From Campylobacterota bacterium (GTDB taxonomy: Bacteria; Campylobacterota; Campylobacteria; Campylobacterales; Sulfurovaceae), in contig JAYEOM010000060.1 in NCBI GenBank assembly GCA_034722955.1, positions 1 to 14,728 on the forward strand: 14,728 bases of DNA. Direction: 5' to 3'. The notes beneath the pieces were generated by a model. It did not search any database. It worked only from the letters and a program-made list of their open reading frames with translations, and was not told where the DNA came from. How positions within the stretch are numbered: the stretch's first letter is position 1; each line of letters opens with the position of its first letter. The position numbers were made by a program, and so were the translations under genes. Positions 50 through 13,648 of this stretch are shown here, in pieces.

Positions 50-2788
50 TTATGAAAAGATGTATAGTGAATCCCTGACACTCTCTATATCAAATGTCTC
101 TACACTATCTTGATATGCTATATCATCCAGCTCTATACTATACTCATGCTCCATATCACTTTTTAGATCTGTCAATATATCCAGTTTGTGCATCTGCACA
201 AATGTATCTTTGGTAGCTTCAAGAAGAGTATCTATATCACAGGCATGAGTCCCAAATGAGTCATGTATAGTGGCAAAAGAGTCTGTACCTTTTTTTTGTG
301 ACTCCAGAACAGTTAAAAACAGATGAGTGGCATCTAGCGAGTGGATAAAGTTGGGGGATATGCCTTTGGTCTGTTCTGTGTGATCTATCTTGTCTGTAGG
401 TATTCTGATCTGTATAGAGTATTTTTTGCCATTGTATTTTGTGGATATCTTATCTATCTTGGTCTTGAACTCTTCTTGTATCACCTCTAGTCCTATGATG
501 GGTGTCTTCCATCTCAACTCTCTGTTTTGTTTTGCTGACTTATTGGCTATCTTCTTCATCCACTCTTTATAGGTGCTCGATGATGATAGCTCTTGGCTCA
601 TAGCCTCCCCTATCTTGTCCCTTAGATATATAGAGATAGCATCTGTAGTCGCTTCATCCCATTGCAGTTTTTCTTGCAGATTGTCATTCAAATAATCTTT
701 TATCTGTGATAGTTTTGCATCGGCTCCTGCCCCATAAACTTCTGTCATGACATTTTTCTTGGTCAAATCCCTGCTAATCTCCAGATAGATTTCATCTATA
801 TATTTTTTCTCTATCCTTATCTCCGTTTTATCTTTTTTGATGATATATCCACTATCTCTATCTATCAGCTCTTTTGTCTTGATGGCAACATCTTTATAGA
901 TATCATTAGGTGTTTCTTGATCTTTTGATGGCAAAACATTGACTTTTGATGCTCCCTTTTTGTCTCGCAGGAGTGCAGTGATATGCTGGAAGCCATTGTT
1001 TGAGCCATCCATAGCTATAGGCAGAGCTGACTTGAAGTTGTCAGGATCTTCGATAAATCCTCTATACTCATAAGCAAATGCTAGAAAGCCATAGGGTTTA
1101 TCTGCCTTCCGCAAAAATGTACTATCAAATCTATCTCTGTTTGCAAAAATTCCAAGAATATCATCTTTGTGTATATCTATCCAATTGACCCTGTCATCAA
1201 AAGATATCTTGTCCTCGCCATAGAGATTTGCTCCGTGGATCTTGAACCACCTCTCACCACTCTCTCCTAGAGGCTTCTTGATAGCAAATCTCAGCAGTGC
1301 TTTTGCCAAATCGTCTCCTTGGGGATTGAGTAGTGGCTGTGCAGGGTATGTTCTGCCTCTGAAGTCTACCTGCCATACGAAGTATATCTCATCATATTTT
1401 GCATATTTTTTGGCTTTTTCGATAGTGAGTTTATCGATATTGATTTCACATTCGAGTGTACCAATGCCAGTCAGCACCTCCTGATGTGCCTCTCTCGCTC
1501 TTTTTTGTTCCTGATATTTCTCTAGGATATTTTCGTCTATCTTCTCCTCGGAAAACCCCATCTCTTCGAGCAGCTCTTTTTGTCCTTGAAGTTTTGTCTT
1601 TATCTCTTTGAGGGAGCTGTATCTTTTTTCTTTCTCTTTTTTCAGCTCTTTTATCCTCTCTTTTGCTTGCTCTTTCAGCAGCTTTAGATGACTCTCTATA
1701 TCATCGATCAGATCACTGTTTATCTGCCATTTGGTATCTTGTATTATATTGATGGCCTTGAGCAGTTTGGGGCTAAATGTCTCCCTGCGACTCTCTACAT
1801 TTTGTCCGTCTCTTTTGGTCTTTGATTTCATTATAGATAGGTCGTATTTTGGCGAGCTATCCAAATCCCTGAGAAACCCTCCATCATCTATAGTCGTCCA
1901 TGGAGTCGGGGGAACAATCATAGGTTCAAATGATGGTGGTGTATATTTGAGTATCGCATTGTATATGTTTCGGCTCTCTTTTTCAAATGCTTTGCTAAAT
2001 TTATAGTTCAGAAAGCCCCCATCTTTTTCGTACTCTTCTAAGATACCCAAATTTATCAATTCGGCAAAGAGCTCTATGGCTACATCTATCTCTGTATCGT
2101 TTTCCCAAGCCTCTATCTTGAGCTTGTCTCTTTTGAATCTAAAGGCGACATGTTCAAAGAGAGACTCTGCTATAGTATTGGTGATCCCTTGCCTGCTTGT
2201 AGAGTTGTCATCTTCGCTATGTAGATCTTTGACTAGTAAACCAGATAGAGTCTGGAGTGTTATCCATGCCACTTCACCACTGCTGAGCAGTATGGTGGCT
2301 AGAGACATAACCTGCTCTTTCTGCTTGAGCCCCAGCTCCTCTATACTGCTCTGTAGATCTACATTTTTATCTTTGAGTATTTCAAAAGTTCTCTTGATGA
2401 CAGATGCTTCGACTCTACCCTCTCTTTTGACTTTTTTAGGATTGAGACCGTAGATGGATTTGTCATTTACCTTGTCTTGCAATCCTATGGCAATATTTTT
2501 GGCTTTTTCTTTGAGATTGTAGTCTGGCAAACTCTCCTCGCCATACAGTTTGCATATCTCGCTTTTGTATCTATCGCTGATAAATATCTTCTCTATTACT
2601 TTGGGCATCTTTTTATTTCTCAGGGTACAGATCTCATCTGAGAGTCTCTTGAGATATATTTTGCTGAAGGTATCTTTGGTTGATCGTTTTTGATTTTTTG
2701 ATTTTTTGTCAATGATCTTTTGCATTTTCTCTTCAAAATCTTCGATAGTCTGTGATTGTAGTTTTAGCTGTTTTTCTCGCAGATTCAT
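50..2788 (-). CDS. T7/T3/SP6-like single-subunit DNA-dependent RNA polymerase (about 912 aa)
   Basis: All hallmark motifs are present in order: PMIVPPTPW, DFRGRTYP, LNPQGDDLAKALL, WFKIHGANLYG-DK, ADKP-FLA, motif A PIAMDGSNNGFQH, DIY, motif B RDLTKKNVMTEVYGA, PNFIHSLDATHL and motif C IHDSFGTH. Start moved from 2824 to the ATG at 2788 (MNLREK), which has AAAAGGT 7 nt upstream. Confidence 0.96.
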   Translation of the reverse strand: MNLREKQLKLQSQTIEDFEEKMQKIIDKKSKNQKRSTKDTFSKIYLKRLSDEICTLRNKKMPKVIEKIFISDRYKSEICKLYGEESLPDYNLKEKAKNIAIGLQDKVNDKSIYGLNPKKVKREGRVEASVIKRTFEILKDKNVDLQSSIEELGLKQKEQVMSLATILLSSGEVAWITLQTLSGLLVKDLHSEDDNSTSRQGITNTIAESLFEHVAFRFKRDKLKIEAWENDTEIDVAIELFAELINLGILEEYEKDGGFLNYKFSKAFEKESRNIYNAILKYTPPSFEPMIVPPTPWTTIDDGGFLRDLDSSPKYDLSIMKSKTKRDGQNVESRRETFSPKLLKAINIIQDTKWQINSDLIDDIESHLKLLKEQAKERIKELKKEKEKRYSSLKEIKTKLQGQKELLEEMGFSEEKIDENILEKYQEQKRAREAHQEVLTGIGTLECEINIDKLTIEKAKKYAKYDEIYFVWQVDFRGRTYPAQPLLNPQGDDLAKALLRFAIKKPLGESGERWFKIHGANLYGEDKISFDDRVNWIDIHKDDILGIFANRDRFDSTFLRKADKPYGFLAFAYEYRGFIEDPDNFKSALPIAMDGSNNGFQHITALLRDKKGASKVNVLPSKDQETPNDIYKDVAIKTKELIDRDSGYIIKKDKTEIRIEKKYIDEIYLEISRDLTKKNVMTEVYGAGADAKLSQIKDYLNDNLQEKLQWDEATTDAISIYLRDKIGEAMSQELSSSSTYKEWMKKIANKSAKQNRELRWKTPIIGLEVIQEEFKTKIDKISTKYNGKKYSIQIRIPTDKIDHTEQTKGISPNFIHSLDATHLFLTVLESQKKGTDSFATIHDSFGTHACDIDTLLEATKDTFVQMHKLDILTDLKSDMEHEYSIELDDIAYQDSVETFDIESVRDSLYIFS

Positions 2789-2805
2789 TGCTTTACCTTT
2801 TTGAT

Positions 2806-2827
2806 AGTTTGCACATATAGACAAAAG
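2806..2827 (+). repeat. 22-bp direct repeat copy 1, AGTTTGCACATATAGACAAAAG; candidate phage-type RNAP promoter
   Basis: Identical to 2878-2899. The CACATATA-G core resembles the T7 CACTATA-G and SP6 GACACTATA-G initiation regions. The repeat is seen directly; promoter function is inferred. Confidence 0.75.
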
Positions 2828-3008: not shown

Positions 3009-3049
3009 TGCCTGTGATGGCTAGAGATACTCGAAACAAAGAGTACTCA
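3009..3049 (+). repeat. 41-bp repeat R1 copy 1 (GCC-TGTGAT-GGC hairpin plus TACTC-N8-GAGTA hairpin)
   Basis: 38/41 identical to 3307-3347 by eye alignment. Confidence 0.85.
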
Positions 3050-3078
3050 TCATATTTAATACCACAAAAAGGATCCAA

Positions 3079-3306: not shown

Positions 3307-3347
3307 TGCCTGAGATGGCTAGAGATACTCAAACCAAAGAGTACTCA
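3307..3347 (+). repeat. 41-bp repeat R1 copy 2
   Basis: 38/41 identical to 3009-3049. All three differences fall in predicted loops. Confidence 0.85.
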
Positions 3348-3370
3348 AAATTTTTTTCAAAAGGATTGCA

Positions 3371-3589: not shown

Positions 3590-3619
3590 TATGCGTAGCT
3601 TGAAATAGCTATTTTTTTT
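3590..3619 (+). terminator. R2 copy 2 hairpin (TAGCT-TGAAAT-AGCTA) followed by T8; candidate intrinsic terminator of the mini-ORF array
   Basis: 5-6 bp stem with a T-tract at 3612-3619. It overlaps the stop codon and last Lys codons of the convergent minus-strand gene, so the T-run may partly reflect coding. Confidence 0.5.
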
Positions 3620-5426
3620 GCATTTTCAAGATCTCATCTCTAAACTCCAATATTTCACTTTTGCTGAAACTATGCTCATCAAAACCAAAAAATCCAAACC
3701 CACCCCCATAGTAGGCTTTTTGCTCCTCTACTATATGTCGAAACATTGTGACTATCTTCTCTATACCATCTCCATAGTAGTTGAGTTTGCTGTCGTTGTA
3801 GATCAGTATATTTTTACCATAGAGTCTGTCGGCTATAGGTGAAAACTTATCTGTGAATGCCTTGACTACTGTAGTATTTCCCTCTTTTTTTTGCATTTTT
3901 ATAGATTCTATCGCCAATTGCTCATCTTTTTTGGTAACTCCTTGGGCTTTTCTATCTTTTTTGCGTATCTCATCTATCTCGTTTTGGCTTGCACCAAACT
4001 CTCTCATAGCTGGTATGTATCCGCTGTCATTGAGGGCTATGAGCATCTCCTGCCTGCTCAGTTGTACCCCTAGCGTATCAGCTACCTGTTCCAGTGAACT
4101 CTTGTTTTTTTGTTTCTCATTGTGGTGGTCTATAGTTAGATAGTTTGCCGGTAGTTCTATATCTTCTATGAGTTCTATACCTATATATAGATAGTTGTTT
4201 TTGAGTCGGTCGCTATAGCTACCGAGCTTTGCCCCCCATGATAGAGAGTGATCATAGTAGACTTGAGCATATCTATCTAGCAGCTTTTTGATAGTTCTCA
4301 TCTCCAGGTCATATCCGCCGAGTAGAAAAACTCTCTTTTTTAGTTGGAAAAATGGTGATATCTTTTTGTGAAATTTCTTTGTACCAAAGGTATGGGCATT
4401 GTATATCTCTATACTATTTGTGATCGCTCTGAGTTTTGCATTTTTGCCAAACAGTGTTTTGGGTTTTTGTATTTTGTGGCTATTGTCAGGATATATATTG
4501 ATGATCATATTTTTGCTGTCATCACCGAAGTATCCCAGCAGGGAGTCGCTCTTGTAGATGATATCCTGAGCTGATATATTGTCTCCGAGTTTGCACTCTA
4601 TGGTATAGATATGGTTCTCCTTGATAGCCAGTATATCAAACTCGTTGAATATCTCTATATCATAGGGATCATCCTCTGCAGAGTCAAAGAGCAGTACCGC
4701 ACCCACTTTAATATCGTCAAAATCGTAACACAAAAGGCTAAGATAGGTAAACTCCTCAAACAGCGTACCAAAATAACTGATATTTCTCAATGCCCTGTAG
4801 TCACTCCCTATCATACCTAGATCTATAAGAGCCTCTATCTGCCCAGGGTATGCAGAGGCTATCGCCTGTAGTCTGTTCTGGTGCAGGTATCTCCTGATCC
4901 TAAAGAGGATATTGAAGTCGCCAAAGAGCAGCAGCAGTGACTTTTTTTTGCTCAATATCTTCGCTTTATCTATCTCATTGGTGAGTTGATAACCCAGAGA
5001 GAGTACAAAGTCATCTACCATCATGTTGTGGGTGATAGTGTGACTGCCAAATCCACTCTCATCTATCAGATTGTAGCTATTTTCGAACTTGTCATAGGCT
5101 ACTATCTTGCCCCCATTGTGTAGGATAGACCCAGAGAGTACGACTAGCAGTGCGGTATCTGCATTGGTGGCATTGAGATAGAGTTCTGTAGTATCGATAC
5201 CATTGATATGGTTTTGGATGGAGAGCATATCTGCCTTGGAGTCCTCGTCTACCTCTATGAGCTCCACCTCTTGTGCTAGTGATACTATCCATCTCTGTAT
5301 CTTGAGTGCATAGTGCTTCTCTTTGTCGTCGTAGATGAGTATATGTTTGGTTGTTCTATCTATAAATTCAAAGATGATGGGTACAAGCTCGTGGAGGTCT
5401 CTGCTGATGATAGTGATGAGTGTCAT
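3609..5426 (-). CDS. Fusion of a Card1/Can2-like CARF + PD-(D/E)xK nuclease (DUF1887-like) with a C-terminal NrN-like DHH phosphodiesterase (about 605 aa)
   Basis: N-terminal Rossmann/CARF-like start MTLITIIS...LYLNATNAD. Nuclease motifs GTLFEEF and NEFDILAIKENHIYTIECKLG. From about 4340 a second domain: RVFLLGGYDLEM, LSWGAKL, IDHH, SSLEQVA, NDSGYIPAM, DRKAQGVT. The ATG at 5426 is preferred because the 5630 start would overlap corA. Confidence 0.75.
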   Translation of the reverse strand: MTLITIISRDLHELVPIIFEFIDRTTKHILIYDDKEKHYALKIQRWIVSLAQEVELIEVDEDSKADMLSIQNHINGIDTTELYLNATNADTALLVVLSGSILHNGGKIVAYDKFENSYNLIDESGFGSHTITHNMMVDDFVLSLGYQLTNEIDKAKILSKKKSLLLLFGDFNILFRIRRYLHQNRLQAIASAYPGQIEALIDLGMIGSDYRALRNISYFGTLFEEFTYLSLLCYDFDDIKVGAVLLFDSAEDDPYDIEIFNEFDILAIKENHIYTIECKLGDNISAQDIIYKSDSLLGYFGDDSKNMIINIYPDNSHKIQKPKTLFGKNAKLRAITNSIEIYNAHTFGTKKFHKKISPFFQLKKRVFLLGGYDLEMRTIKKLLDRYAQVYYDHSLSWGAKLGSYSDRLKNNYLYIGIELIEDIELPANYLTIDHHNEKQKNKSSLEQVADTLGVQLSRQEMLIALNDSGYIPAMREFGASQNEIDEIRKKDRKAQGVTKKDEQLAIESIKMQKKEGNTTVVKAFTDKFSPIADRLYGKNILIYNDSKLNYYGDGIEKIVTMFRHIVEEQKAYYGGGFGFFGFDEHSFSKSEILEFRDEILKMQKK

Positions 5427-5486
5427 ATCGCTACTTTTTAATTTAATTTTATCCAAAAGTGCTATCATAAGAGCTAAAGGATTTGT
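5427..5486. promoter_or_regulatory. 60-bp divergent promoter region between the CARF-nuclease/NrN gene and corA
   Basis: Plus strand: extended -10 TGcTATCAT at 5460-5468 and SD AAAGGA at 5476-5481. Minus strand: -10-like TATGAT (5469-5464) and TAAAAT (5451-5446). Confidence 0.5.
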
Positions 5487-6767
5487 ATGCCACAAGATAT
5501 ATATAGTTGCCATACTTTTATGTTGCCATTTATCATAGAGTGCTATGATCACAAGAGAGAGATCATCGAAGCCAAAAGCTGGCAATATAAGGAACACAAA
5601 GACAACTATAATGAGATAGCATATTTTCATAGCTTCTTCAAAGATAGTATGTTTACCAAAGATAAGGATGCAAACTCTTCATTTTATACCAAAGATGAGT
5701 ATAGGGATAGTCAGTTTGTCATCAGCAGATCAAAAGAGTATGAATTAAATCTTAAAAGTGTAAACCTTAGAGTGTTTAAGACAGGTGTAGGGATATTATC
5801 TTTTCATATAGAAAATAGATCATATTCAGATATCAAAGATATCCTGGAAATCAATGACTATGGCAGGAGAATCTATCCCGAATATTTAGATGAAAAACTC
5901 CAATGCACTCTTGTCCCAAACTATATTCGATTAAAAGATATAAAAGAAGATTTTAGATACGATCAACAACCCACAAAAATAAAACTCTCAAAAATCATAA
6001 CAGAGTTTCTACCAGAAGAGAAAATAAGAACAGCCATAGATGATAGAATGTTCGTTATAAGTTTTTACAAAAACAGTAGTTTTTCAAATGATCTGAAAAG
6101 AGATTATATGAAAAATAGTAAGTGGTATGAGTATATTTTCATAGATGGAAATGGTCTCAATGTCCAAAATCGTGAAATGCAAAACAATCTAGTCAAAAAA
6201 GCCACCTATCCCAGATGGCAGGGCTATGGTACTATGTATGGTATCAGCAGATACTCTTTTGTATGTGTGGCAGATGAGAGTGAGTTTATCAGAGAGACTG
6301 TTGAGGTGCATATGCAGACGATCTATTTTCAGATGTTTTCTCTACTCTTGATGCTGAGGGCTACTATATTGAAGTTCTCCAAAGAGGTGAGTGATATAGC
6401 TAAAGAGATAGACACTAAAGGCACAGATATTAAAGTCGAAGATCTATACAAACGATATATACAGTTCGTAAATAGCTTCTACTTCAGAGAGATAACAGCC
6501 AAAGACCAAGGTCTAGAGCTATATGATCAAGCTAGAGAGATACTGAGGATAGATAGTGACATCAAAGACTTGGACAATGAGATAGGGGAATTGCATAGAT
6601 ATGTCTCAATGATAGAGGGCAATGAGAATACCAAAAAAATGGATAGATTGCAATATTGGGGTTTTCCTCTGCTCTTTTTGTCTCTTATCACTGGTTTTTT
6701 TGGTATGAATATATTCCCACAAGGCTTTTTAGACACCATATCCAATTGGCTTAAAGCGTTATTTTAA
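5487..6767 (+). CDS. corA: CRISPR type III-associated CorA-family membrane effector
   Basis: Large soluble N-terminal domain (IDDRMFV, TYPRWQGYGTMYGISRYSFV, YFREITAKDQGLELY), then a TM helix ending in the CorA signature ITGFFGMN. First gene of the cmr operon. Confidence 0.88.
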   Translation: MPQDIYSCHTFMLPFIIECYDHKREIIEAKSWQYKEHKDNYNEIAYFHSFFKDSMFTKDKDANSSFYTKDEYRDSQFVISRSKEYELNLKSVNLRVFKTGVGILSFHIENRSYSDIKDILEINDYGRRIYPEYLDEKLQCTLVPNYIRLKDIKEDFRYDQQPTKIKLSKIITEFLPEEKIRTAIDDRMFVISFYKNSSFSNDLKRDYMKNSKWYEYIFIDGNGLNVQNREMQNNLVKKATYPRWQGYGTMYGISRYSFVCVADESEFIRETVEVHMQTIYFQMFSLLLMLRATILKFSKEVSDIAKEIDTKGTDIKVEDLYKRYIQFVNSFYFREITAKDQGLELYDQAREILRIDSDIKDLDNEIGELHRYVSMIEGNENTKKMDRLQYWGFPLLFLSLITGFFGMNIFPQGFLDTISNWLKALF

Positions 6768-6776
6768 GGAAAAAAA

Positions 6777-7787
6777 ATGAACAAAAGTAAATTTAAGGCA
6801 GAGTTCACACTGAAACAGCACACCCCAATCATCCATTTCCAGAGTGGTCAGAACGGAGCAACGCTGAGGGCTACAGAGTTGAAACCGAAGTTTGACAGGT
6901 TTTTATTGCACAATGTTGAAGATATCCCATTCATCAAAAATGCCAATGGACACAAATCATTGGATTATAAAGTAACTATTGCAATAAATGGGCAAGGGGT
7001 TAAAGGCACTCCCAACAACTTTTTGTATTTTGCCAATAATTCAGCTCAAGGAGATGAATTTAAATACACTATCAAAAGTCAGAGTGTTATCGTTACTTTC
7101 TTTTCATACAGAACTGATTTGATAGAATCAATAAATAGATATTTTAATGATTTTTTACTGATTACAAACTTTGGATCCAGAAGTACAAAAGGGTATGGTA
7201 GTTTTGGTAAAAGTATAGAGAATGCTGAAACTGTATTAAGAAAATATTATCCAATTGTCTTCAAGATAACAAATGTTGGCGACATAAGTAAATGGGAAGT
7301 TAAAGTTGACACTATTCACAAAAAATTAAAATCTGGAATCAATTTCATACAATATCATAAATCTTTACTTTTCCAATACATGTGTACCCAAAACATTAGA
7401 TGGGAAAAGAGAAATATCAAAGAGAAGTTTTCAGTTTTAGCAACAGGAAAGCCCCCGATAGACTGCGATACAAGAGGTCAATATAGATATATCAGAGCGA
7501 TGTTGGGAACTGCCGGTATCAATGAATATGACAGAGGTAACAAAACTGTAACGATAGATGGTGGAGAGATAGAGAGGTTTGCCTCTCCAATTATTTATAA
7601 AATTATTGGAAACAGCATATATCTTCTAGGAGATAAAAGTTATGAAAAGATAATGGGTAAACCTTTTATTTTTCAGTATAAACAAAGCAGTTTCACCATT
7701 AATACACCATCCAAAAGTGAATTTGATTTGCATAAATTTTTAAAGTTTGTAGAGAAAAATGACAATATAATCAGTGAGGTAAAATAG
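6777..7787 (+). CDS. cmr1: Type III-B RAMP Cmr1 (B. fragilis-like)
   Basis: LKQHTPIIHFQ...ATLRATELKPKFDRFL N-terminus, G-rich loop NFGSRSTKGYGSF, ERFASPI; lies directly before cas10. Confidence 0.85.
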   Translation: MNKSKFKAEFTLKQHTPIIHFQSGQNGATLRATELKPKFDRFLLHNVEDIPFIKNANGHKSLDYKVTIAINGQGVKGTPNNFLYFANNSAQGDEFKYTIKSQSVIVTFFSYRTDLIESINRYFNDFLLITNFGSRSTKGYGSFGKSIENAETVLRKYYPIVFKITNVGDISKWEVKVDTIHKKLKSGINFIQYHKSLLFQYMCTQNIRWEKRNIKEKFSVLATGKPPIDCDTRGQYRYIRAMLGTAGINEYDRGNKTVTIDGGEIERFASPIIYKIIGNSIYLLGDKSYEKIMGKPFIFQYKQSSFTINTPSKSEFDLHKFLKFVEKNDNIISEVK

Positions 7788-9056
7788 ATGACCTACATAG
7801 CACTAACCATAGGACCGATATACAAGACACTGGCAAATGCCAAGAATCCCAAAGAGCTTTTTGCAAGTAGCTATATCTTTAGCTATATTATGAGAAATAT
7901 CATCAAAGAGTTCAAGAGTAGAGAGTTTGTCATCCCCTATATAAAAGATGACTCTATCTTTGATGAGAGCAGTAAAGTGGGTCTTTTTCACGACAGATTT
8001 ATTTTTAAGTCACAAGAGCAAGAGAGTGATATCTATAAACTAAAAAGAGTCATTGAAAATATCTCAAAAGATACAGCATCCAAGCTAGGGTTGAATCATA
8101 AAGATGTAGAAGAGTATCTACAGATAAATTATTTGGCAAAAGAGATAGGTGATGAAAATCCCATAGAAGCACTCAGCCCCTATCTAGATACAAAAGAGCT
8201 TTTTTATCAACTCTCTTCTAGTGATAGCTTTATCTCATCTCTTAGCAGAAAAAAGGGAGACAGAGATAATTTTCTTACAGCCAATAAAAATATCATAGAT
8301 GATTTGAAGAAGCTTTCGTATCATAAATACTACTGTGTCGTGCATGCCGATGGTGACAAGATGGGCGAAGCTATCAAAGATAAAGCCAATATAGAAAATA
8401 TCTCCAAAAGTCTTTTTGGTTACTGTATGGAGTCAAACCATCTCATACGAGAGTTTGGAGGTCAAACCATCTTTGCAGGGGGTGATGACTTGATGTTTAT
8501 AGCACCTACGATCTCAAGAGATAGAACAAAAACTATTTTTGACTTATGCGAAGATATATCACAAAGTTTCAACATAGATAAGGCAACACTGAGTTTTGGT
8601 ATCAGTATAAACTATATAAAATATCCACTCTATGAAGCAGTAGAAAACTCAAGAGAGTTACTTTTTGACAAAGCAAAAAATGAGCAGAGAAACAACATAG
8701 CCTTCAATATCACAAAACACAGCGGTCAAAGCTTCAGTACTGTGATACACAAAGGTGATGATGAAATTTACAGTAAATTTTTAGCTTTTACCTCAAGTGT
8801 AAATGACAAAGACAATATCGGTAACTTCCTAGACTCAATACATCACAAGATAGCTACATATGAAACCACATTGTCAAATATCAAAAATGACAAAACCAAA
8901 CTAACAAACTTTTTTGTTAACTACTTCAATAAAGATGAGCATAAAAATAACAAAGAGTTTTTTGATCATTTAGTGGATTTCATCTATGTAGCAACCATAG
9001 AACAAGTCTATACAACACTTAGATTTATCAAGTTTATTCAAGGAGATAAGTCATGA
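7788..9056 (+). CDS. cas10: Cas10/Cmr2, compact, no HD domain, intact GGDD palm
   Basis: YIALTIGPI...ELFASSYIFS, YCVVHADGDKMG, IFAGGDDLMF, TLSFGISI..KYPLYEA. Confidence 0.95.
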   Translation: MTYIALTIGPIYKTLANAKNPKELFASSYIFSYIMRNIIKEFKSREFVIPYIKDDSIFDESSKVGLFHDRFIFKSQEQESDIYKLKRVIENISKDTASKLGLNHKDVEEYLQINYLAKEIGDENPIEALSPYLDTKELFYQLSSSDSFISSLSRKKGDRDNFLTANKNIIDDLKKLSYHKYYCVVHADGDKMGEAIKDKANIENISKSLFGYCMESNHLIREFGGQTIFAGGDDLMFIAPTISRDRTKTIFDLCEDISQSFNIDKATLSFGISINYIKYPLYEAVENSRELLFDKAKNEQRNNIAFNITKHSGQSFSTVIHKGDDEIYSKFLAFTSSVNDKDNIGNFLDSIHHKIATYETTLSNIKNDKTKLTNFFVNYFNKDEHKNNKEFFDHLVDFIYVATIEQVYTTLRFIKFIQGDKS

Positions 9057-9376
9057 TAGATATTGAAAAAATAAAAAAAGATATTCCTGTAATGCTGAAA
9101 TCTTTAGATATAAACAAAATCATCCTTTTTGGCAGTTATGCTTATGGAACCCCTCACAAAGACAGTGATTTGGATATCTGTATAGTTGAAGAAAAGGTAG
9201 TGTCAAAAATGCAAGAAAAGAGAGAGATCAGAAAACTTCTTGGCGAGATAGATATGCCAATGGATATTATTCTAGTAGATGAAGATTACTATCAAACTCA
9301 TAGTGATAAAAATTGGATAAATACTGCCCTATATGATGCCAGACAAAAAGGAGAGATTTTATATGAAAAAGAATGA
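9053..9376 (+). CDS. Minimal nucleotidyltransferase (MNT) antitoxin-like protein
   Basis: IILFGSYAYG...DSDLDI Pol-beta motif plus a third Asp in MDII; 107 aa. Confidence 0.9.
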   Translation: MIDIEKIKKDIPVMLKSLDINKIILFGSYAYGTPHKDSDLDICIVEEKVVSKMQEKREIRKLLGEIDMPMDIILVDEDYYQTHSDKNWINTALYDARQKGEILYEKE

Positions 9377-9767
9377 TATAAAAAATAGTGCCGATCTATT
9401 TTTGTATAAAGCAATAATTGATTTCAATACTGCAAAAGCTATTTTTAAAAGCTTTGAAAATGATGATATTGAGATATATATAGAAAAAATATATTTTGAT
9501 TTGCAGCAAAGCAGTGAAAAGCTTCTCAAAAACCTTCTATCCAAAAATGGTGTAGATGTTCCAAAGATTCACGATATAAAGCAATTAATAAGAGTTTGTG
9601 AAAAAAACAATATCAATCTTATGAGTAGAGTAGAGGTATTGATAGATTTGAGTGATTATGCAGTGGAAGGTCGCTATGACATTATCTGTGATGATATATC
9701 AAATAGTGATCTCTATTTTGAATTGGTAGAACAGTTTATAATATTTGTAAAAGGAGACAAAGCATGA
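9363..9767 (+). CDS. HEPN-domain protein (MNT-HEPN pair)
   Basis: FDLQQSSEKLLK...VPKIHDIKQL...DYAVEGRY fits the HEPN family consensus (F-x-x-QQ-x-x-EK-x-LK...P-x-x-HD...RY). ATG 9363 with a GGAG SD is preferred over 9333. Confidence 0.85.
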   Translation: MKKNDIKNSADLFLYKAIIDFNTAKAIFKSFENDDIEIYIEKIYFDLQQSSEKLLKNLLSKNGVDVPKIHDIKQLIRVCEKNNINLMSRVEVLIDLSDYAVEGRYDIICDDISNSDLYFELVEQFIIFVKGDKA

Positions 9768-10729
9768 GATATCTAGTCACGCTTACACCACTAGAGCCTT
9801 TTCTGTTCGGAGGAGATACGACTTTTGGCAAGAAGGGCGATGAGGAGAAAGGCACCTATCTGGTCAAATCACGGCAATTCCCTCAACAGAGTGCAGTTTT
9901 GGGGATGCTCAAAAAAGAGATCATGACCCAGTCAGGAGTTTTGACACGCAAAGTGAGAGGTGAATGGGTAGATAAGCAGAAGAAAAAAGAGGCAGAAGCT
10001 CTAGTAGGAGTTGAAAAATTTGATATAGGCTCTGAAGGTTTACAGGATTTTGGTATTATCAAATCTCTTGGTTCGATCTTTTTGATACAGGAGCAAAAAC
10101 AATATATCAAAAAAGTAGATATTGATTCTTATACTTACAAAGATGGCTTACTAGAAAGCTATAATCCAGAAATAGATATTTATGATAATTTTGTAGAGAC
10201 AAAAACAAGTGAAAAATTATCATCAGGCGATATCTTCAAACCCATAGAGCAGACAGGCAACAAGACAGGAGGAGAGGATGACTCACTCTTCAAAAAAACC
10301 TCCTATCTACTAAAATATGATTTCAAGTTTGCATTTTATCTTGAGTGCGAGTATGAGTTGAGAGACTCCATCATCCATCTAGGAGCAGACAGAAGCAGCT
10401 TCAAGCTGGAGATCAGAGAGGATAATGACAGTTTGGAGTATAGTGATGAAAATGGCTATTTGACACTCATGAGCGATGCCTATATCACTCTACCTATCAA
10501 AGAACATTGTGTTTTTGCTATTACTAGTGAGATAAGTTTCCAGAGCTTACAGAACAAAAAGCATGCGACCAAGAGTAATGCATTTCAAAAAAGTACAAAA
10601 ATATTTCTCTATGAGAAAGGTTCAGTTTTTATAAACCCATCGGATGAACTAGTAAAAAACCTAAACAATAAAAACTGCCAACGGATCGGTTACAATAAAC
10701 ACACTTACGAAAAAGGACAAAATAGATGA
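9764..10729 (+). CDS. cmr3: Cmr3 (Cas5-family RAMP)
   Basis: YLVTLTPLEPFLFGG, S..FPQQSAVLGML, LGADRSSF, LYEKGSVF, IGYN; position in the operon. Confidence 0.9.
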   Translation: MRYLVTLTPLEPFLFGGDTTFGKKGDEEKGTYLVKSRQFPQQSAVLGMLKKEIMTQSGVLTRKVRGEWVDKQKKKEAEALVGVEKFDIGSEGLQDFGIIKSLGSIFLIQEQKQYIKKVDIDSYTYKDGLLESYNPEIDIYDNFVETKTSEKLSSGDIFKPIEQTGNKTGGEDDSLFKKTSYLLKYDFKFAFYLECEYELRDSIIHLGADRSSFKLEIREDNDSLEYSDENGYLTLMSDAYITLPIKEHCVFAITSEISFQSLQNKKHATKSNAFQKSTKIFLYEKGSVFINPSDELVKNLNNKNCQRIGYNKHTYEKGQNR

Positions 10730-11574
10730 AAACAGAACTATACACCATAGAGACACTCAGCAACCTCCATGTAGGAGCAGGGGATATCAACTTTGATGTC
10801 ATAGACAACCAAGTGCAGAGAGATGCCATCACCAACCTGCCCAATATCAATAGCAGTAGTCTAAAGGGTGCCTTTAGAGAGCATTTCACACAGTATGATA
10901 GTGATGGCAAAAAGCTGGATGATACACTGATGGTCAAGTATATCTTTGGAGGTGCCAATGATGATGAGAACTCTCATGCTACAGGAGCCTATAGTTTCTT
11001 TGAGGCACAGCTACTTACTCGACCAGTACGAAGCGATGCCAAGCCATACTTCAACGCTACAAGCCCCTCAGTCATCAAGAGTCTGTTAGATACGATAGAA
11101 AATTTCGATATAGAGTTTAATAAAGAATTAACACAAGCACTTACAAACCTTTCAAAGTTGAATCCTCAAAAAAATAATCCTATTATCTTTGAAGATATTC
11201 CAAAGACCAGACTCGAAGATGATCCAGCCAAATATCAAAACTTTGATGTCTCGAAACTTACAGAATTTTTAGGTGTTGATCTTGCACTCTTTGCAGATAG
11301 TGATTTCGCAGAATTAGACCTGCCTGTACTAGCTAGAAATGCACTCGAAAATGGAGTGAGCCAAAACCTCTGGTATGAAGAGGTCGTACCCAAAAAGTCC
11401 AAGTTTTTCTTCTGCATCGGCAAACCAAATATAGACAATACAGACCCAAAAGATTATGATCAGAAGATCAAAGGGTTTGAAAACAGATTTGGCACAGAGG
11501 GTCACAAAGTACAGTTGGGAGCCAACAAATCCATAGGGTATGGATTTAGTCTGGTCAAAAAGGTATCGTTATGA
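10726..11574 (+). CDS. cmr4: Cmr4 (Cas7-family backbone RNase)
   Basis: LHVGAG...VIDNQVQRD...PNINSSSLKGAFRE, ARNALENGVSQNLWYEEVVP, QLGANKSIGYG. Confidence 0.95.
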   Translation: MKTELYTIETLSNLHVGAGDINFDVIDNQVQRDAITNLPNINSSSLKGAFREHFTQYDSDGKKLDDTLMVKYIFGGANDDENSHATGAYSFFEAQLLTRPVRSDAKPYFNATSPSVIKSLLDTIENFDIEFNKELTQALTNLSKLNPQKNNPIIFEDIPKTRLEDDPAKYQNFDVSKLTEFLGVDLALFADSDFAELDLPVLARNALENGVSQNLWYEEVVPKKSKFFFCIGKPNIDNTDPKDYDQKIKGFENRFGTEGHKVQLGANKSIGYGFSLVKKVSL

Positions 11575-11957
11575 GCAAGAAGAGCATAGAGAGGTATATA
11601 CCCAAGGCGATAAAGGTGTTGGATGCTACTTTTGATGACGGTGTTATCCCATCAGCTTACAATGGATATATATCTTCATTTGGTGCGAGTGTGATGCAGA
11701 GTGGACTGCTACCTACGCTAGCACTATTTGAAAATACCAATGCCTCCACAAAGGAGAACAAAGAGTATCTATCGTATCTCATAGTCAATATCCTAAGAGA
11801 CAACAGAGATGATGTTTCACTCCTGAGAGAGGTATTGGTTAGAGAAGAGCGTGGAGAGAGTCGCAACCATCTCAAAGAGCAGATACTAGATATATCTATA
11901 GCCATCAAGTTAAGTATCAGAACTTTCAAGCTCAAAAAAGGTGATAAAGATGAGTAA
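11571..11957 (+). CDS. cmr5: Cmr5 (Cas11 small subunit)
   Basis: 128 aa, helical, YNGYISSFGASVMQSGLLPTLA; lies between cmr4 and cmr6. Confidence 0.88.
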   Translation: MSKKSIERYIPKAIKVLDATFDDGVIPSAYNGYISSFGASVMQSGLLPTLALFENTNASTKENKEYLSYLIVNILRDNRDDVSLLREVLVREERGESRNHLKEQILDISIAIKLSIRTFKLKKGDKDE

Positions 11958-12900
11958 TCCAAATCTAGGTTGGCTCTTTTATAAGGATTATTTCACCGCT
12001 ATAAGAGACTGGACCAATCCAAAAGCAAATGAAAAGGATATATCCAGAAAAGTAGATGAGTTGATAAAAAAAACTCCAACCATAAAAGAGACAGAGATAC
12101 TAGGCTCTACACACTTCAAAGCTACCACTACTTATCCAGGACTGCTGCTAGGCAGCGGCAATGCACATGAATTGCCAGGTATTGAAGGTCAAGCCATATT
12201 GGGCTTTCACTTCGACTACACCAGCGGATTGCCCATCATCCAAGGCTCATCTATCAAGGGAGTGCTGAGAAGTGCGTTCAGACATTGGGAATATATAGCA
12301 GAGATCGGGGGTGAGACTTTAGTCTCACTGATAGATGTAGAGAACTTGGAAAGAGAGATATTTGACAACGGTGATATATTTTTCGATGCACAGATCATCA
12401 GTGGCGGCAGGATACTAGGCGATGACTACATCACACCACACGGTGACGATCTACTCAAGAATCCCATACCCCTGAGATTTATCAAAGTCCTGCCCAATGT
12501 GACATTTAGGTTTGATTTTGAGTTGAGTGACGGGATTTTGGAAAAGGATAAAAAAATCATACTCTTTACTAAAATAATAGAAGATTTAGGAGTAGGAGCA
12601 AAAACCAATGTAGGGTATGGGAAGTTTGATATAGAGGATATGGAGCAACAGATAAAAAAGGAGCAACAAAAACTCAAGAGAGAAGAGGCGGAGAGTAGAG
12701 TAACTAGTGCTAATGATGACTACAGTAAAGCCATCGCACTAATAGATGCCACTATAAAATTGGACAATAAGCTTTTTAAAAATTTACGAGATGAAGTTGA
12801 ACTAGATAGCCATGAAAAGAGCAAGGTCAAAGAACATTTTGATAGCAAATTTGAGGGTGATAGTAAATTTAAAAACAGGATACACAAGATATTAACTTAA
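11950..12900 (+). CDS. cmr6: Cmr6 (RAMP)
   Basis: NLGWLFYK, YPGLLLGSG, GFHFDYTSGLPIIQGSSIKGVLRS, DYITPH, NPIPLRFIKV, GVGAKTNVGYG. ATG 11950 is preferred over GTG 11941. Confidence 0.93.
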   Translation: MSNPNLGWLFYKDYFTAIRDWTNPKANEKDISRKVDELIKKTPTIKETEILGSTHFKATTTYPGLLLGSGNAHELPGIEGQAILGFHFDYTSGLPIIQGSSIKGVLRSAFRHWEYIAEIGGETLVSLIDVENLEREIFDNGDIFFDAQIISGGRILGDDYITPHGDDLLKNPIPLRFIKVLPNVTFRFDFELSDGILEKDKKIILFTKIIEDLGVGAKTNVGYGKFDIEDMEQQIKKEQQKLKREEAESRVTSANDDYSKAIALIDATIKLDNKLFKNLRDEVELDSHEKSKVKEHFDSKFEGDSKFKNRIHKILT

Positions 12901-12990: not shown

Positions 12991-13227
12991 GTGACCATAC
13001 GAAAAAACTTTACTATGTCAGACTCTGTTGTGATGGATTTGGAATATCTCGCTAAAAAATTGCACAAAAAACAGTCTCAAGTGATACAAGAGCTTATAGT
13101 CCATAAAATGAAAGAGTTTGAAAAAGAAAAAAAACTAGATATGCTGGAGAAGATATCGGGAATATTTACGGGCAAGATACCTGAAGACATATCGATACAA
13201 TCCATAAAGTCAGATAGTGAAAATTAG
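12991..13227 (+). CDS. Ribbon-helix-helix (CopG/VapB-like) antitoxin
   Basis: N-terminal strand IRKNFTMS followed by two helices (..LEYLAKK..KQSQVIQELI); overlaps the PIN gene. Confidence 0.75.
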   Translation: MTIRKNFTMSDSVVMDLEYLAKKLHKKQSQVIQELIVHKMKEFEKEKKLDMLEKISGIFTGKIPEDISIQSIKSDSEN

Positions 13228-13648
13228 AAGGATTTTTTTTGATGCCAATATTTTCAACGATATATTTGATGAAAACAGAGTCCATCATAACTCTAGCAAA
13301 GAGTCTTTGCTCTATGCTCTGCAAAATGATATAAGATGCTGTACCAGTTGTGATATAGTTACCAATATCTACTACATAACTGCCAAATACACTTCAAAAA
13401 ATCAAGCATTGGATGCCCTTGACTACCTAAAAGAGATAGTGGAGATCATCCCTTTTTCTTACGAAGAACTCACCATTGCGATAGATCTGATGAAGAGAGA
13501 CGGTGAGTATAAGGATATGGAGGATACTATACAGTATATTTTAGCTATAGAGCAGCATTGTGACTTGATCATCTCAAATGATAAACGATTTGTCTCTAAA
13601 GAGATAGAGTGCGTAAGCAGTGATGATTTTGCAAATTCTCGCAGATAG
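13217..13648 (+). CDS. vapC: PIN-domain (VapC-like) toxin
   Basis: IFFDANIFND, DMEDTIQY, IISNDKRF acidic PIN motifs; 143 aa. Confidence 0.88.
   Translation: MKIRRIFFDANIFNDIFDENRVHHNSSKESLLYALQNDIRCCTSCDIVTNIYYITAKYTSKNQALDALDYLKEIVEIIPFSYEELTIAIDLMKRDGEYKDMEDTIQYILAIEQHCDLIISNDKRFVSKEIECVSSDDFANSRR

Follow-up and report, generated by a model that had tools for sequence, protein, structure and literature searches.

Which second messenger is read by a CARF nuclease that shares one polypeptide with an enzyme degrading SAM-AMP? This question was raised by a 605-aa gene product encoded at 3609..5426 on the minus strand of the window, i.e., the whole stretch of 14,728 nucleotides of Campylobacterota DNA analyzed here, in which a CARF domain, a PD-(D/E)xK nuclease and a predicted NrN domain follow one another. 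In the available text of the sources, every characterized Can2/Card1 protein binds cA4 (Zhu 2021; Hoikkala 2024), and SAM-AMP signalling is described with CorA as its one known effector and with a requirement for SAM-AMP degradation that is left unexplained (PMC12255297). The reading favored here, with a probability of about one half, was that the fusion would act in a type III-B system signalling through SAM-AMP as a second effector, of the self-limiting kind, with SAM-AMP as its putative activator.

The frame of the fusion gene was open from 5630 to 3609, consistent with the single uninterrupted ORF (3609..5426) that had been claimed from the letters of the window. The stop codon was located at 3609-3611 and the ATG at 5424-5426 was taken as the true start, because the N-terminal MTLITI was conserved in 24/24 aligned members of the family and corA starts divergently at 5487. 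The gene was present in a single copy in its source genome. That genome is a fragmented metagenome-assembled genome (140 contigs, 99.97% complete), which gave some ground for regarding the fusion as an artefact, namely a misassembly, a frameshift or a stop codon recently lost in one genome. However, the junction was covered by contigs from four runs of one study, all of them DNA; the window itself may derive from two of these runs, while run X3 was from another sample, and its contig spanned 4267-4977 across the junction with 0 differences and 0 gaps. Both domains were also found in 70 of 121 retrieved proteins, 68 of which did not come from the window, each of these representing one cluster at 90% identity, and their identities ranged from 35 to 83%. 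The AF2 model was confident across the junction as well. Recurrence in other genomes and reads had been proposed as a check in the sequence-only reading, and these data supplied it: the fusion is a diversified family, a sequencing error or one-off stop loss at the junction was excluded by the recurrence and the independent contigs, and an artefact was given next to no credence. No RNA data covering the window were found among the matched runs (the same four DNA runs), and no family reached its gathering score in an Rfam scan of the window.

Three parts of the protein were delimited. Residues 1-127 (5046..5426) formed the CARF domain, a Rossmann-like sensor recognized by VIA-align, secondary structure and conservation; residues 128-362 (4341..5045) comprised a helical linker and the PD-(D/E)xK nuclease domain, placed by profile comparison with the PDB; and residues 363-605 (3612..4340) formed the NrN domain, a predicted DHH-family SAM-AMP phosphodiesterase identified by PDB and fold matches. 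No family was returned by Pfam or NCBIfam at E<=0.01. When the limit was raised to E<=10, the only Pfam matches were Card1_endonuc (E 0.01) and the restriction-endonuclease-like CDI_toxin_EC869_like (E 0.09), and no DHH model was obtained even at this threshold. The PADLOC models CARF4--CARF_PDDEXK and DHH_CorA matched residues 1-350 (E 9.6e-43) and 364-599 (E 2.4e-73), respectively. The AF2 model (pLDDT 90.9, pTM 0.87) was aligned to Can2 (7bdv) over 320 residues within residues 1-361 with a VIA-align Z of 26.9, in agreement with Foldseek, and to Card1 (6xl1) with a Z of 24.3, and proteins with a CARF domain only were aligned over residues 1-123/128 with Z of 12-13. A profile of the CARF-nuclease part retrieved Can2 7bdv (E 1.7e-27) and Card1 6wxw (E 5.8e-21) from the PDB. 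The catalytic residues of the nuclease were E262/D264 in NEFD, E277 and K279 in ECK, and Y291-K292; they were invariant across 20 to 24 family sequences, and D264 was aligned to Card1 D294, the residue mutated in 6xl1. The predicted complex of two copies of residues 1-355 scored 0.37, against a mark of 0.42.

The C-terminal part matched the PDB entry of NrN, 9lq9, in phmmer (E 2.9e-51), and its model was superimposed on B. fragilis NrN 9lqa over 242 residues with a Z of 32.3, an rmsd of 1.8 A and 44% identity; the Foldseek TM against solved NrN was 0.90. The motifs GGxDLEM (E375), DHH (D433-H435, at 4122-4130), ND (D467) and RxxDRxxQGV were present. The residues changed in the mutant entries 9lqa (E21A) and 9lqc (D119A) correspond to E375 and D467, and these two, together with D433-H434-H435, were invariant in 24/24 family sequences. 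On this sequence and fold evidence, the C-terminal domain is an NrN-type predicted SAM-AMP phosphodiesterase with intact catalytic residues. Domain HMMs and a structure model, which the sequence-only reading had called for, thus bore out its naming of a Card1-like CARF nuclease and an NrN-like DHH enzyme, and its positions fitted too: the nuclease motif put at about 4585-4650 contains D264, E277 and K279 at 4590-4637, IDHH at 4122-4133 is I432-H435, and the DHH domain said to start at about 4340 begins near residue 363. In the accessible part of Chi 2023, NrN cuts SAM-AMP and does not cut cA2, cA3, cA4, cA6 or pApA.

The distribution of NrN raised the possibility that the fusion is mainly a regulated or localized NrN serving CorA immunity, whose delivery, dosage or allosteric control would be the purpose of the fusion, with the CARF-nuclease acting as a scaffold or responding to something else. 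The domain behaved as a mobile module. Among 149 distinct NrN domains, 97 were stand-alone, 34 were fused to CorA and 18 to a CARF nuclease, in line with the prior remark that NrN mostly occurs alone or linked to corA, and 22 changes of architecture were counted on the NrN tree, on which midpoint rooting gave no clear origin of the nuclease-fused form. Besides, CorA immunity in B. fragilis depends on NrN or a lyase to degrade SAM-AMP, for a reason not understood in the text available (PMC12255297), and no further NrN gene was found beside corA in the window. In contrast, the catalytic residues of the nuclease and the ligand face of the CARF domain were invariant, which would be needless for a mere scaffold, and one locus (L006) retained the fusion though its CorA already bears an NrN domain. 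A protein serving mainly as a localized NrN was therefore considered unlikely.

The family was examined further at the level of loci and trees. Complete fused genes were found in the window and in 17 other loci. In the CARF-nuclease tree (117 rows) the basal branches were fused and the stand-alone forms were nested within them, and only 5 changes between the fused and stand-alone states were counted compared with a mean of 38.9 in shuffles. CorA, free or NrN-fused, was encoded in the same sequence as the fusion in 12/18 fused loci, the remaining 6/18 being short contigs or cut by a contig end; no cas or corA gene was found within 10 kb upstream in two fused loci (L007 and L117), which counted against the favored reading. 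In Campylobacterota loci NrN was attached to the nuclease (window), to CorA (L051, L132 and L185) or to both (L006). Stand-alone CARF nucleases with 36-43% identity were encoded upstream of NrN-CorA fusions in L051 and in L009, where the contig ends inside the NrN ORF. No relatives of the fusion were found in IMG/VR viral contigs. The CARF-nuclease-NrN fusion was not described in the accessible portions of the literature searched on SAM-AMP, NrN and CARF, and the supplementary tables of PMC12669027 and the Makarova 2020 CARF classification may list it. The architecture may have gone unremarked because Pfam and NCBIfam miss the NrN domain here.

The neighboring genes pointed to the signal produced in this locus. 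A CRISPR-associated CorA membrane effector (5487..6767, plus strand; PADLOC CorA E 2.8e-113) is arranged head-to-head with the fusion gene across an intergenic region of 60 nt. It is followed on the same strand by cmr1 (6777..7787; PADLOC Cmr1 E 1.2e-70), a cas10/cmr2 gene (7788..9056) whose 422-aa product lacks an HD domain and was identified by Pfam, NCBIfam and PADLOC, and cmr3 (9764-10729), cmr4 (10726-11574), cmr5 (11571-11957) and cmr6 (11941-12900), identified by Pfam and NCBIfam, so the CorA and type III-B context described earlier was confirmed. The Cas10 carried GGDD at 231-234, and its D69 and E137 were equivalent to D70 and E151 of B. fragilis Cas10, which, in the text available of Chi 2023, line the SAM site as an acidic pair that marks SAM-AMP synthases. 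D69, E137 and G231-G232-D233-D234 were invariant in 9/9 Cas10s from such loci, and the best PDB match was Bfr Cmr2 9lq5 (E 1.3e-79), compared with 2.8e-30 for a cOA-making Cmr2. The Cas10 next to the fusion is thus one with the signature of SAM-AMP synthases, for which SAM-AMP synthesis is predicted. In the 99.97% complete source genome no second Cas10 was found, the two other matches being GGDEF or HD-GYP signalling proteins. CRISPR arrays are located on contigs C43 and C109.

These findings weighed on the alternative that the CARF domain senses a cyclic oligoadenylate, likeliest cA4. Its source would be this Cas10, through a side reaction, or a different type III system, and the protein would link cOA and SAM-AMP signalling. 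Such an account is in keeping with the membership of the CARF-nuclease part in the Can2/Card1 fold and sequence family. In addition, the double mutant of Bfr Cas10 shifts toward pppApA synthesis according to the available part of Chi 2023, and few changes would then separate the two Cas10 chemistries. The single Cas10 of the source genome, with its SAM-AMP signature, spoke against it, as did the specificity of NrN: since cA2-cA6 are left uncut, the activator of a cOA sensor would escape the enzyme to which that sensor is joined. Effectors with different signals also seldom share one locus, as far as the accessible text of Hoikkala 2024 goes. Counts of Cas10 in other genomes with the fusion were rough because the profile PF22335 also matches GGDEF proteins at about 25-36 bits, and only matches of at least 60 bits were followed up. 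Among four other fusion genomes, Cas10 matches over the Pfam cut-off outside the fusion locus were found only in G401, in which two such matches, on another contig than the fusion locus, would suit a cOA signal; the sole over-cut-off match of G402 was on the contig of its fusion locus, one marginal match on another contig was obtained for G172/G403, and G404 had no match over the cut-off, which, like the further matches of G401, counted against the favored reading. The former suggestion of a node coupling this Cmr with a second type III system that makes cOA was consequently not supported for the source genome, in which one Cas10 was found. The self-limiting SAM-AMP effector was favored because of the NrN fusion, the SAM-AMP signature of Cas10 and the lack of any other Cas10 in the genome. 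The same three features support the idea of a self-limiting nuclease adapted to SAM-AMP as it was first put forward, which stands as something we infer and not as a demonstration.

The ligand face of the CARF domain was compared with that of cA4-binding proteins. Across 111 sequences, residues D33, D60-E61-D62, D90, G106, Y111-D112, N116 and N119 were conserved at 1.00 and N85 at 0.99; these residues are placed at the C-terminal ends of strands b2-b5, and their conservation was checked in 24 sequences too. Judged from this pattern, the ligand face is under strong constraint. D90 was conserved at 1.00 in the family, whereas in the outgroup L prevailed (0.7) and D was not among the three commonest residues (9/10 rows); likewise, G106 was at 1.00 in the family compared with A at 0.7 in the outgroup. 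D90 aligned with Can2 T98, the neighbor of the phosphate-binding K99. Counting against the favored reading, the D90 signature was not universal, as three divergent NrN-CorA-adjacent proteins (L132, L185 and L037) retained an outgroup-like TDG[YF] loop. The cA4 contacts that Can1 and Can2 have in common are S19, T42, K99 and Y118 of Can2 in the text available of Zhu 2021, and this set was incomplete in the fusion: T42 was replaced by D33 and K99 by T91, a variable position, two changes of the four that weighed against a cOA ligand. Y118 corresponded to A110, or to Y111 if the alignment was shifted by one. The 7bdv alignment begins at profile position 28, hence S19 was mapped through Card1 to S8 (S/N/H/T in the family), Card1 S11 being assumed to equal Can2 S19.

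Differently, the stand-alone relatives moderated what these replacements could say. D33, E61, D62, N85, Y111, D112, N116 and N119 were common to relatives with 25-34% identity, and among the nearest stand-alone proteins, which share most of the pocket residues, one belonged to the type III-A Csm locus L212, which also encodes a CARF-RelE effector, and another to the type III-D locus L207, where Csx23 and Csx20 are present; these partners are of the cA4 type. Despite the lost Can2 contacts cA4 may still be bound, because relatives in cOA-type loci share D33, and the pocket as a whole is probably compatible with cA4, because those relatives share most of its residues. The argument that an acidic pocket means a ligand other than cA4 was no longer treated as a strong one, as the same residues occur in relatives within III-A and III-D loci. 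Taken with the evidence from Cas10 and NrN, cyclic oligoadenylate sensing by the fusion was held to have a low probability. Another conceivable case is a CARF domain that binds some other small molecule, such as SAM, a breakdown product of SAM-AMP or another nucleotide, or nothing. An Asp is found at the T42 position in VC1899 as well, which is not activated by cA4 in the accessible part of Zhu 2021, and for 10/12 loci of stand-alone relatives the surrounding stretch of about 9 kb yielded no CRISPR genes, selected neighbors having been family-scanned. A preceding phmmer screen with the proteins of the window had found no CRISPR genes near any of the 12 relatives, and the PADLOC family scans recognized L207 and L212 as type III loci that it had missed, i.e., as false negatives. 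The tight fusion and the synteny with NrN, CorA and Cmr argued for one pathway instead, and an unrelated ligand, or none, was regarded as quite improbable.

A further gene of the locus encodes a T7-like single-subunit RNA polymerase of 924 aa (50..2824, minus strand), which matched PF00940 (E 6.8e-94) and T7 RNA polymerase 1aro (E 2.9e-70). The gene was intact, shares the strand of the fusion gene and lies 785 nt downstream of it. Repeats of 29 nt occur at 2799-2899. In the 1aro alignment, the T7 stretches AFDGS, TKRSVMT, LAYGS and IHDSFGT were aligned with conserved residues of the polymerase of the window, and we take these stretches to hold T7 D537, K631, Y639 and D812. Synteny of such a polymerase gene with the CARF-nuclease gene was observed in 9 complete loci and one truncated locus. 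Without recourse to the host polymerase, the enzyme might transcribe the locus or the DNA of an invader. No report tying a single-subunit RNA polymerase to type III CRISPR was found in the literature searched, and the term RNA polymerase was absent from the portions of text examined of bioRxiv 10.1101/270033 and PMC6546367.

If the fusion is a self-limiting SAM-AMP effector, the following course can be proposed. The Cmr complex would bind target RNA, and Cas10 would join SAM and ATP to SAM-AMP, which would open CorA and also bind the CARF domain of the fusion, switching on the nuclease against DNA and/or RNA. The tethered NrN would hydrolyze SAM-AMP to SAM and AMP beside the sensor, and the activity of the nuclease would be short-lived and thresholded because its activator is degraded next to the sensor. 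SAM-AMP has no two-fold symmetry, and CARF dimers of the Can2 type bind a symmetric ring, a mismatch that speaks against SAM-AMP as the ligand. Speculatively, the two-fold site, which in Can2 takes up a single cA4, could accommodate two SAM-AMP molecules, with D90 toward the methionine end. The fuller proposal, in which the CARF domain of the family is a SAM-AMP receptor, NrN acts in cis and the T7-like RNA polymerase is an accessory of the CRISPR locus, is possible, with the odds somewhat against it. If true, no earlier CARF domain would have been shown to respond to a messenger other than a cyclic oligoadenylate, and SAM-AMP would gain its first effector besides CorA; an NrN acting in cis on each effector would also help to account for the dependence of immunity on SAM-AMP degradation, beyond a simple off-switch. 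The family provides a soluble, assayable protein with which to ask whether CARF domains can read SAM-AMP, and it bears on whether Cas10s of the CorA type give one or two signals and on why NrN must be physically near its effectors. CARF domains would gain a wider range of ligands if SAM-AMP is sensed, and sensing of cA4 would break the rule of one signal for one locus.

The closest known proteins each resemble a part of this architecture. Can2 and Card1 (7bdv, 6wxw and 6xl1) share with the fusion the two-domain fold over residues 1-362 (Z 24-27), the catalytic D...ExK and an origin in type III CRISPR loci, whereas the fusion adds a C-terminal NrN domain, sits in a locus of the SAM-AMP type and has the cA4-contacting K99 and T42 of Can2 replaced. 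The orphan Card1-like VC1899 of Vibrio cholerae (1xmx) has the same fold (Z 26.7) and the Asp mentioned above, and differs in the lack of an NrN domain. NrN of B. fragilis (9lq9-9lqc) is likewise corA-linked in a type III-B locus, with equivalents of its E21, D119 and DHH conserved in the fusion, but it is a free protein of 260 aa and not the C-terminal domain of a nuclease effector. In the NrN-CorA fusions of Aliarcobacter butzleri and relatives and of Beggiatoa (EDN71418), as given in the text available of Chi 2023 and Shmakov 2018, NrN is also joined in one polypeptide to an effector from its own locus; the partner there is a membrane protein, and here it is a soluble CARF nuclease. Csx1-Crn2 and Csm6 ("Fuse to defuse", accessible part; PDB 8y7g) likewise carry an effector and an enzyme degrading a CRISPR second messenger on one polypeptide. 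The degrading enzyme is a ring nuclease in those proteins and a predicted DHH SAM-AMP phosphodiesterase in the fusion, whose activator is putative. The fusion would thus be, we infer, the SAM-AMP counterpart of these self-limiting cOA effectors.

The window is one complete contig (C60; 14,728 bp) of a 2.5-Mb metagenome-assembled genome (MAG) of 140 contigs with an estimated completeness of 99.97%. The fusion gene is encoded on its minus strand (3609-5426), in a reading frame that ran uninterrupted from 5630 to 3609. The ATG at 5426 proved correct as its start; the MTLITI N-terminus was found in 24 of 24 aligned members, and the divergent corA starts at 5487, leaving 60 nt between the two starts. 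The protein matched no Pfam or NCBIfam family at E<=0.01, and at E<=10 Pfam gave Card1_endonuc (E 0.01) and CDI_toxin_EC869_like (E 0.09) and no DHH model. The PADLOC profiles recovered both domains, CARF4--CARF_PDDEXK at residues 1-350 (E 9.6e-43) and DHH_CorA at residues 364-599 (E 2.4e-73), and residues 361-600 matched the solved NrN of B. fragilis (E 2.9e-51). The AlphaFold2 model, for which an alignment of 24 sequences was the input, reached a pLDDT of 90.9 and a pTM of 0.87 and was confident across the domain junction. By superposition of this model, residues 363-604 fitted SAM-AMP-bound NrN 9lqa (Z 32.3, rmsd 1.8 A, 44% identity; found by Foldseek too), and residues 1-361 fitted cA4-bound Can2 7bdv (Z 26.9) as well as VC1899, Cdn1 and Card1 (Z 24-27). 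The Card1-like nuclease and NrN-like halves proposed in the sequence-only reading were thus both recovered, and its motifs were located where it had placed them, D264/E277/K279 of the PD-(D/E)xK site at 4590-4637 and IDHH at 4122-4133.

Relatives were sought in a collection of 5.8 billion proteins, which returned 167 matches, and the best 120 of these were used; a set of 121 sequences, two of them from the window, was sorted by architecture with domain-wise phmmer. Among the matches listed, 70 of 121 sequences contained both domains, 47 were CARF nucleases standing alone (about 376-428 aa) and 4 were NrN-CorA fusions; the two-domain proteins beyond the window numbered 68, each representing one 90%-identity cluster, at 35-83% identity. 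Scanning of one-genome-per-species contigs and metagenome contigs revealed the complete fused gene in 17 further loci, hosted by Campylobacterota MAGs (Epsilonproteobacteria, Campylobacteraceae, Sulfurimonas, Nitratifractor and Nautiliaceae) and, in one case, by a bin labelled Gracilibacteria. The fusion is sporadic in the window's class, because only 2 of 401 evenly sampled genomes (G000, that of the window, and G172) carried the complete form. Logan contigs from four runs of a single study covered the gene. The window itself may have come from two of the four, and a contig of run X3, a separate sample, spanned 4267-4977 and with it the junction near 4341-4361 without a single difference or gap. 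A sequencing error or one-off stop loss at the junction, which had been considered from the sequence, was contradicted by this recurrence in clusters and loci and by the X3 contig, and the chance of an artefact is negligible. Another run, X2, contained a 3,120-nt contig (record 3, depth 10) that matched only 3610-3628 and 5435-5452, with about 1.4 kb between its two matches versus 1.8 kb in the window; it may derive from a co-occurring strain in which this position is occupied by a different or shorter gene.

For the active sites, a profile built from 20 CARF-nuclease domains found Can2 (E 1.7e-27) and Card1 (E 5.8e-21). In the profile alignment, Card1 D294 (mutated in 6xl1) aligned with D264 of the fusion, and Card1 IECK with E277-C-K279. 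E375 and D467 correspond to the NrN substrate-trap positions E21A (9lqa/9lqb) and D119A (9lqc), and, like the DHH triad and the R-x-x-D-R-x-x-Q-G-V block, they were invariant in 24/24 fused proteins. Given the catalytic residues present and this invariance of the NrN residues, both the nuclease and the NrN domain look active.

The genes by the fusion are, in order, CorA (E 2.8e-113), Cmr1, Cas10, a nucleotidyltransferase-HEPN pair, Cmr3, Cmr4, Cmr5 and Cmr6. CorA, free or fused, was present on the same sequence in 12 of the 18 fused loci (window included); the six in which it was not seen are on contigs just 1.9-6.8 kb long or have only one flank sequenced, as in L007 and L117, where nothing CRISPR-like was found within 10 kb upstream of the fusion. 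The window Cas10 is 422 aa long without an HD domain, and its best solved relative was B. fragilis Cmr2 (profile E 1.3e-79 vs 2.8e-30 for Pyrococcus Cmr2). Chi et al. (2023) describe two residues of CorA-1 Cas10s, D70 and E151, as absolutely conserved and as lining SAM at its methionine end; the D70N/E151R variant no longer makes SAM-AMP. In the same study, NrN cleaved SAM-AMP and not cA2, cA3, cA4, cA6 or pApA. By alignment, D69 and E137 of the window Cas10 are the equivalents of D70 and E151, and D69, E137 and GGDD were invariant in 9/9 Cas10s from fusion-type loci. A second Cas10 was sought in the window's genome with PF22335 and TIGR02578 profiles and was not found, so the earlier suggestion of a node to a second type III system was unsupported in this genome. 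Matches on its contigs C18 and C28 were rejected as a PAS-GGDEF protein and a periplasmic-binding/GAF/HD-GYP/GGDEF protein. In other fusion genomes, matches over the Pfam cut-off were counted: G402 had one Cas10 match on the contig of its own fusion locus, G401 had three (one on the fusion-locus contig, two on another contig), G172 (same genome as G403) had one marginal match on another contig, and G404 had none.

The best explanation, with a probability of about 0.5, is that the fusion acts as a SAM-AMP-activated, self-limiting nuclease: SAM-AMP would switch on the CARF nuclease, and the attached NrN would remove SAM-AMP and limit nuclease activity. This is suggested by the characterised homologue of the fused NrN, which removes SAM-AMP and nothing else, and by the SAM-AMP signature of the only Cas10 in the genome. 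Alternatively, the fusion could mainly be a tethered or regulated NrN serving CorA, as immunity by the B. fragilis system depends on the degradation of SAM-AMP (available text of PMC12255297). We consider this improbable; the sensor face and the nuclease site are each under strong constraint, which argues for a SAM-AMP-activated nuclease.

The ligand of the CARF was approached through cA4 contacts. In the portions of Zhu et al. (2021) covered, the contacts common to Can2 and Can1 are Can2 S19, T42, K99 and Y118, and the insensitivity of VC1899 to cA4 is attributed to acidic replacements. In the fusion, T42 is replaced by D33, invariant in the family, and K99 by the variable T91, Y118 falls at A110/Y111, and an invariant D90 stands in place of Can2 T98, adjoining K99. 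S19 was mapped to S8 (S/N/H/T across the family) by way of the Card1 alignment, that of 7bdv beginning at profile position 28, with Card1 S11 assumed to be the equivalent of Can2 S19. The conserved CARF residues D33, D60-E61-D62, N85, D90, G106, Y111-D112, N116 and N119 (conservation in 111 sequences 0.99 for N85 and 1.00 for the others) lie in the AlphaFold2 model where strands b2-b5 have their C-terminal ends, on the face that usually binds the ligand in a CARF. This acidic face was considered as evidence against cA4 and dropped, because the same residues occur in relatives from cyclic oligoadenylate (cOA)-type loci. Twelve stand-alone relatives of 25-34% identity in complete Campylobacteria genomes had D33, E61, D62, N85, Y111, D112, N116 and N119 in common with the fusion, and the seven scanned matched CARF4--CARF_PDDEXK at E 4.5e-73 to 2.4e-153 vs 9.6e-43 for the fusion. 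Two of the relatives lie in cOA-type loci: L212 is of type III-A (Csm) and also encodes a CARF-RelE effector, Cas6, WYL and RT-Cas1, and L207 is of type III-D and encodes Cas10d, Csx23 and Csx20. We take Cami1, Csx23 and Csx20 to be cA4-linked names. Because relatives sharing the conserved residues occur in these loci, the ancestral ligand of the Card1-like lineage was probably cA4. Retention of cOA sensing by the fused CARF is nevertheless unlikely in our estimate: effectors within one locus as a rule use one common signal (available text of Hoikkala 2024), which argues for SAM-AMP activation here.

The NrN-linked set (111 sequences) was also compared with an outgroup of 10 stand-alone sequences, L204 and L212 being left out. 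D90 reached 1.00 in the former, and the outgroup had Leu (0.7) in a TDG[LM] loop, with no D among the top three residues at this position (9/10 rows); G106 was at 1.00 vs Ala 0.7, and further differences were K64, D66 and T5. The divergent nucleases of L132, L185 and L037, which are NrN-CorA-adjacent, retained TDG[YF], and therefore no clean ligand signature emerged from this comparison. That the CARF binds another ligand or none is regarded as highly improbable.

Architecture was examined on two trees. The quick maximum-likelihood tree of CARF nucleases contained 117 rows (64 fused, 53 alone), after exclusion of P0001 and 5 short fused fragments. Two Tannerella CARF4 proteins, themselves on a very long branch, served as its root. 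Fused lineages were basal and stand-alone forms nested, mostly in one clade of 44, with 5 changes of state vs a mean of 38.9 in label shuffles, at least 4 of the 5 being forced by well-supported branches. As the rooting is weak, the derivation of stand-alone from fused forms is a suggestion only. The FastTree tree of 149 distinct NrN domains (97 free, 34 CorA-fused, 18 nuclease-fused) required at least 22 architecture changes, so NrN is a mobile module. Gene maps showed NrN joined to either neighbour: nuclease-NrN with separate CorA in the window, L002-L004, L109, L110 and L113-L115, and separate nuclease with NrN-CorA in L132, L185 and L051, the last with an RNA polymerase gene between the two. 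In a Nitratifractor MAG (L006:10001-14285; also G172:C27 and L119), nuclease-NrN is directly followed by NrN-CorA, each effector having its own NrN domain. In L002, the closest relative of the window's locus (fusion 80% identical), an IS200-like Y1 transposase gene (2273-2824) lies between corA and the fusion gene. L037 was rejected as a split fusion; its nuclease gene is followed by an NrN ORF ended by the contig end.

A T7-type single-subunit RNA polymerase of 924 aa is encoded downstream of the fusion at 50-2824 (-) (PF00940 E 6.8e-94; T7 RNAP E 2.9e-70). The T7 stretches AFDGS, TKRSVMT, LAYGS and IHDSFGT, presumably those of catalytic D537, K631, Y639 and D812 (T7 numbering), aligned with its conserved residues. 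Homologues adjoin the CARF-nuclease gene in 7/18 fused loci: the window, L003 (12740-15418), L008 (3496-4545), L109 (9662-12334), L116 (3279-6053), L118 (5818-8448; between cmr1 and corA) and L121 (3581-6451; order nuclease-NrN, RNAP, CorA, Cmr1, Cas10). L005, whose fusion is truncated at the start of the contig, has the polymerase too, as do the stand-alone-nuclease loci L009 (1753-4980) and L051 (1554-4802), where its ORF and the nuclease gene share 4 and 13 nt, respectively. The polymerase gene thus accompanies the CARF-nuclease gene within CorA type III-B loci; it was absent from L004, L006 and L007, fused loci with enough sequence. Only 4/401 class genomes had such a polymerase, the other three just 32-34% identical to the window's, and identity to phage polymerases was at most about 33%. 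[quoted passage not shown] The fusion and polymerase genes are 785 nt apart, and this gap contains two repeat pairs, 29-nt direct repeats (90% identical; 2799-2827 and 2871-2899, at and just upstream of the polymerase start) and 49-nt repeats (88% identical; 3009-3057 and 3307-3355, with a third, partial copy at 14113-14129 within the reverse transcriptase gene). They had no Rfam match and could be regulatory or promoter sites.

Between cas10 and cmr3, a minimal nucleotidyltransferase and a HEPN gene (9053-9376 and 9333-9767, (+)) resemble a MntA/HepT-type toxin-antitoxin pair. The same insertion was found in L003 (5710-6033 and 5310-5723), whose fusion is 65% identical to the window's, and not in L004 or L109. 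A PIN-domain gene (13217-13648, (+)) and a reverse transcriptase (13657-14727, (+)) lie 3' of cmr6. The latter runs off the contig end, and its match to the group II intron RT/maturase model reached 271 bits (cut-off 300 bits); it may be CRISPR-associated rather than a mobile intron, since a reverse transcriptase also follows cmr6 in L003, L004 (fragment) and L185. No CRISPR array stands beside the Cmr locus on the window contig. Arrays of the genome were located at contig ends (C43:16522-17071 and C109:38-354), their repeats of 30 and 37 nt sharing 3'-terminal ATTGAAAC; Cas1 was found on C109, C106 and C71, in long ORFs of 750, 427 and 705 aa, and Cas6 on C11. Based on these locations, the arrays of the window's type III-B system are probably on other contigs.

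In a few of the 162 NrN loci examined, Can2-like genes of another CARF4 subfamily (PDLC01880-type) were detected, two in Tannerella L079 (9461-10519 and 21110-22213), one each in L066, L164 and L173, and a fragment in L025. They are stand-alone genes whose N-x-S-E-G-T loop is more canonical, and the CorA/NrN type III-B loci that contain them belong to Bacteroidota (Tannerella and others). The different subfamily in these loci indicates that SAM-AMP-type loci acquired Can2-like nucleases more than once. [quoted passage not shown] NrN fused to CorA has already been described (available text of Chi 2023 and Shmakov 2018); the parts of the present protein are known, and their combination is new to the literature searched.
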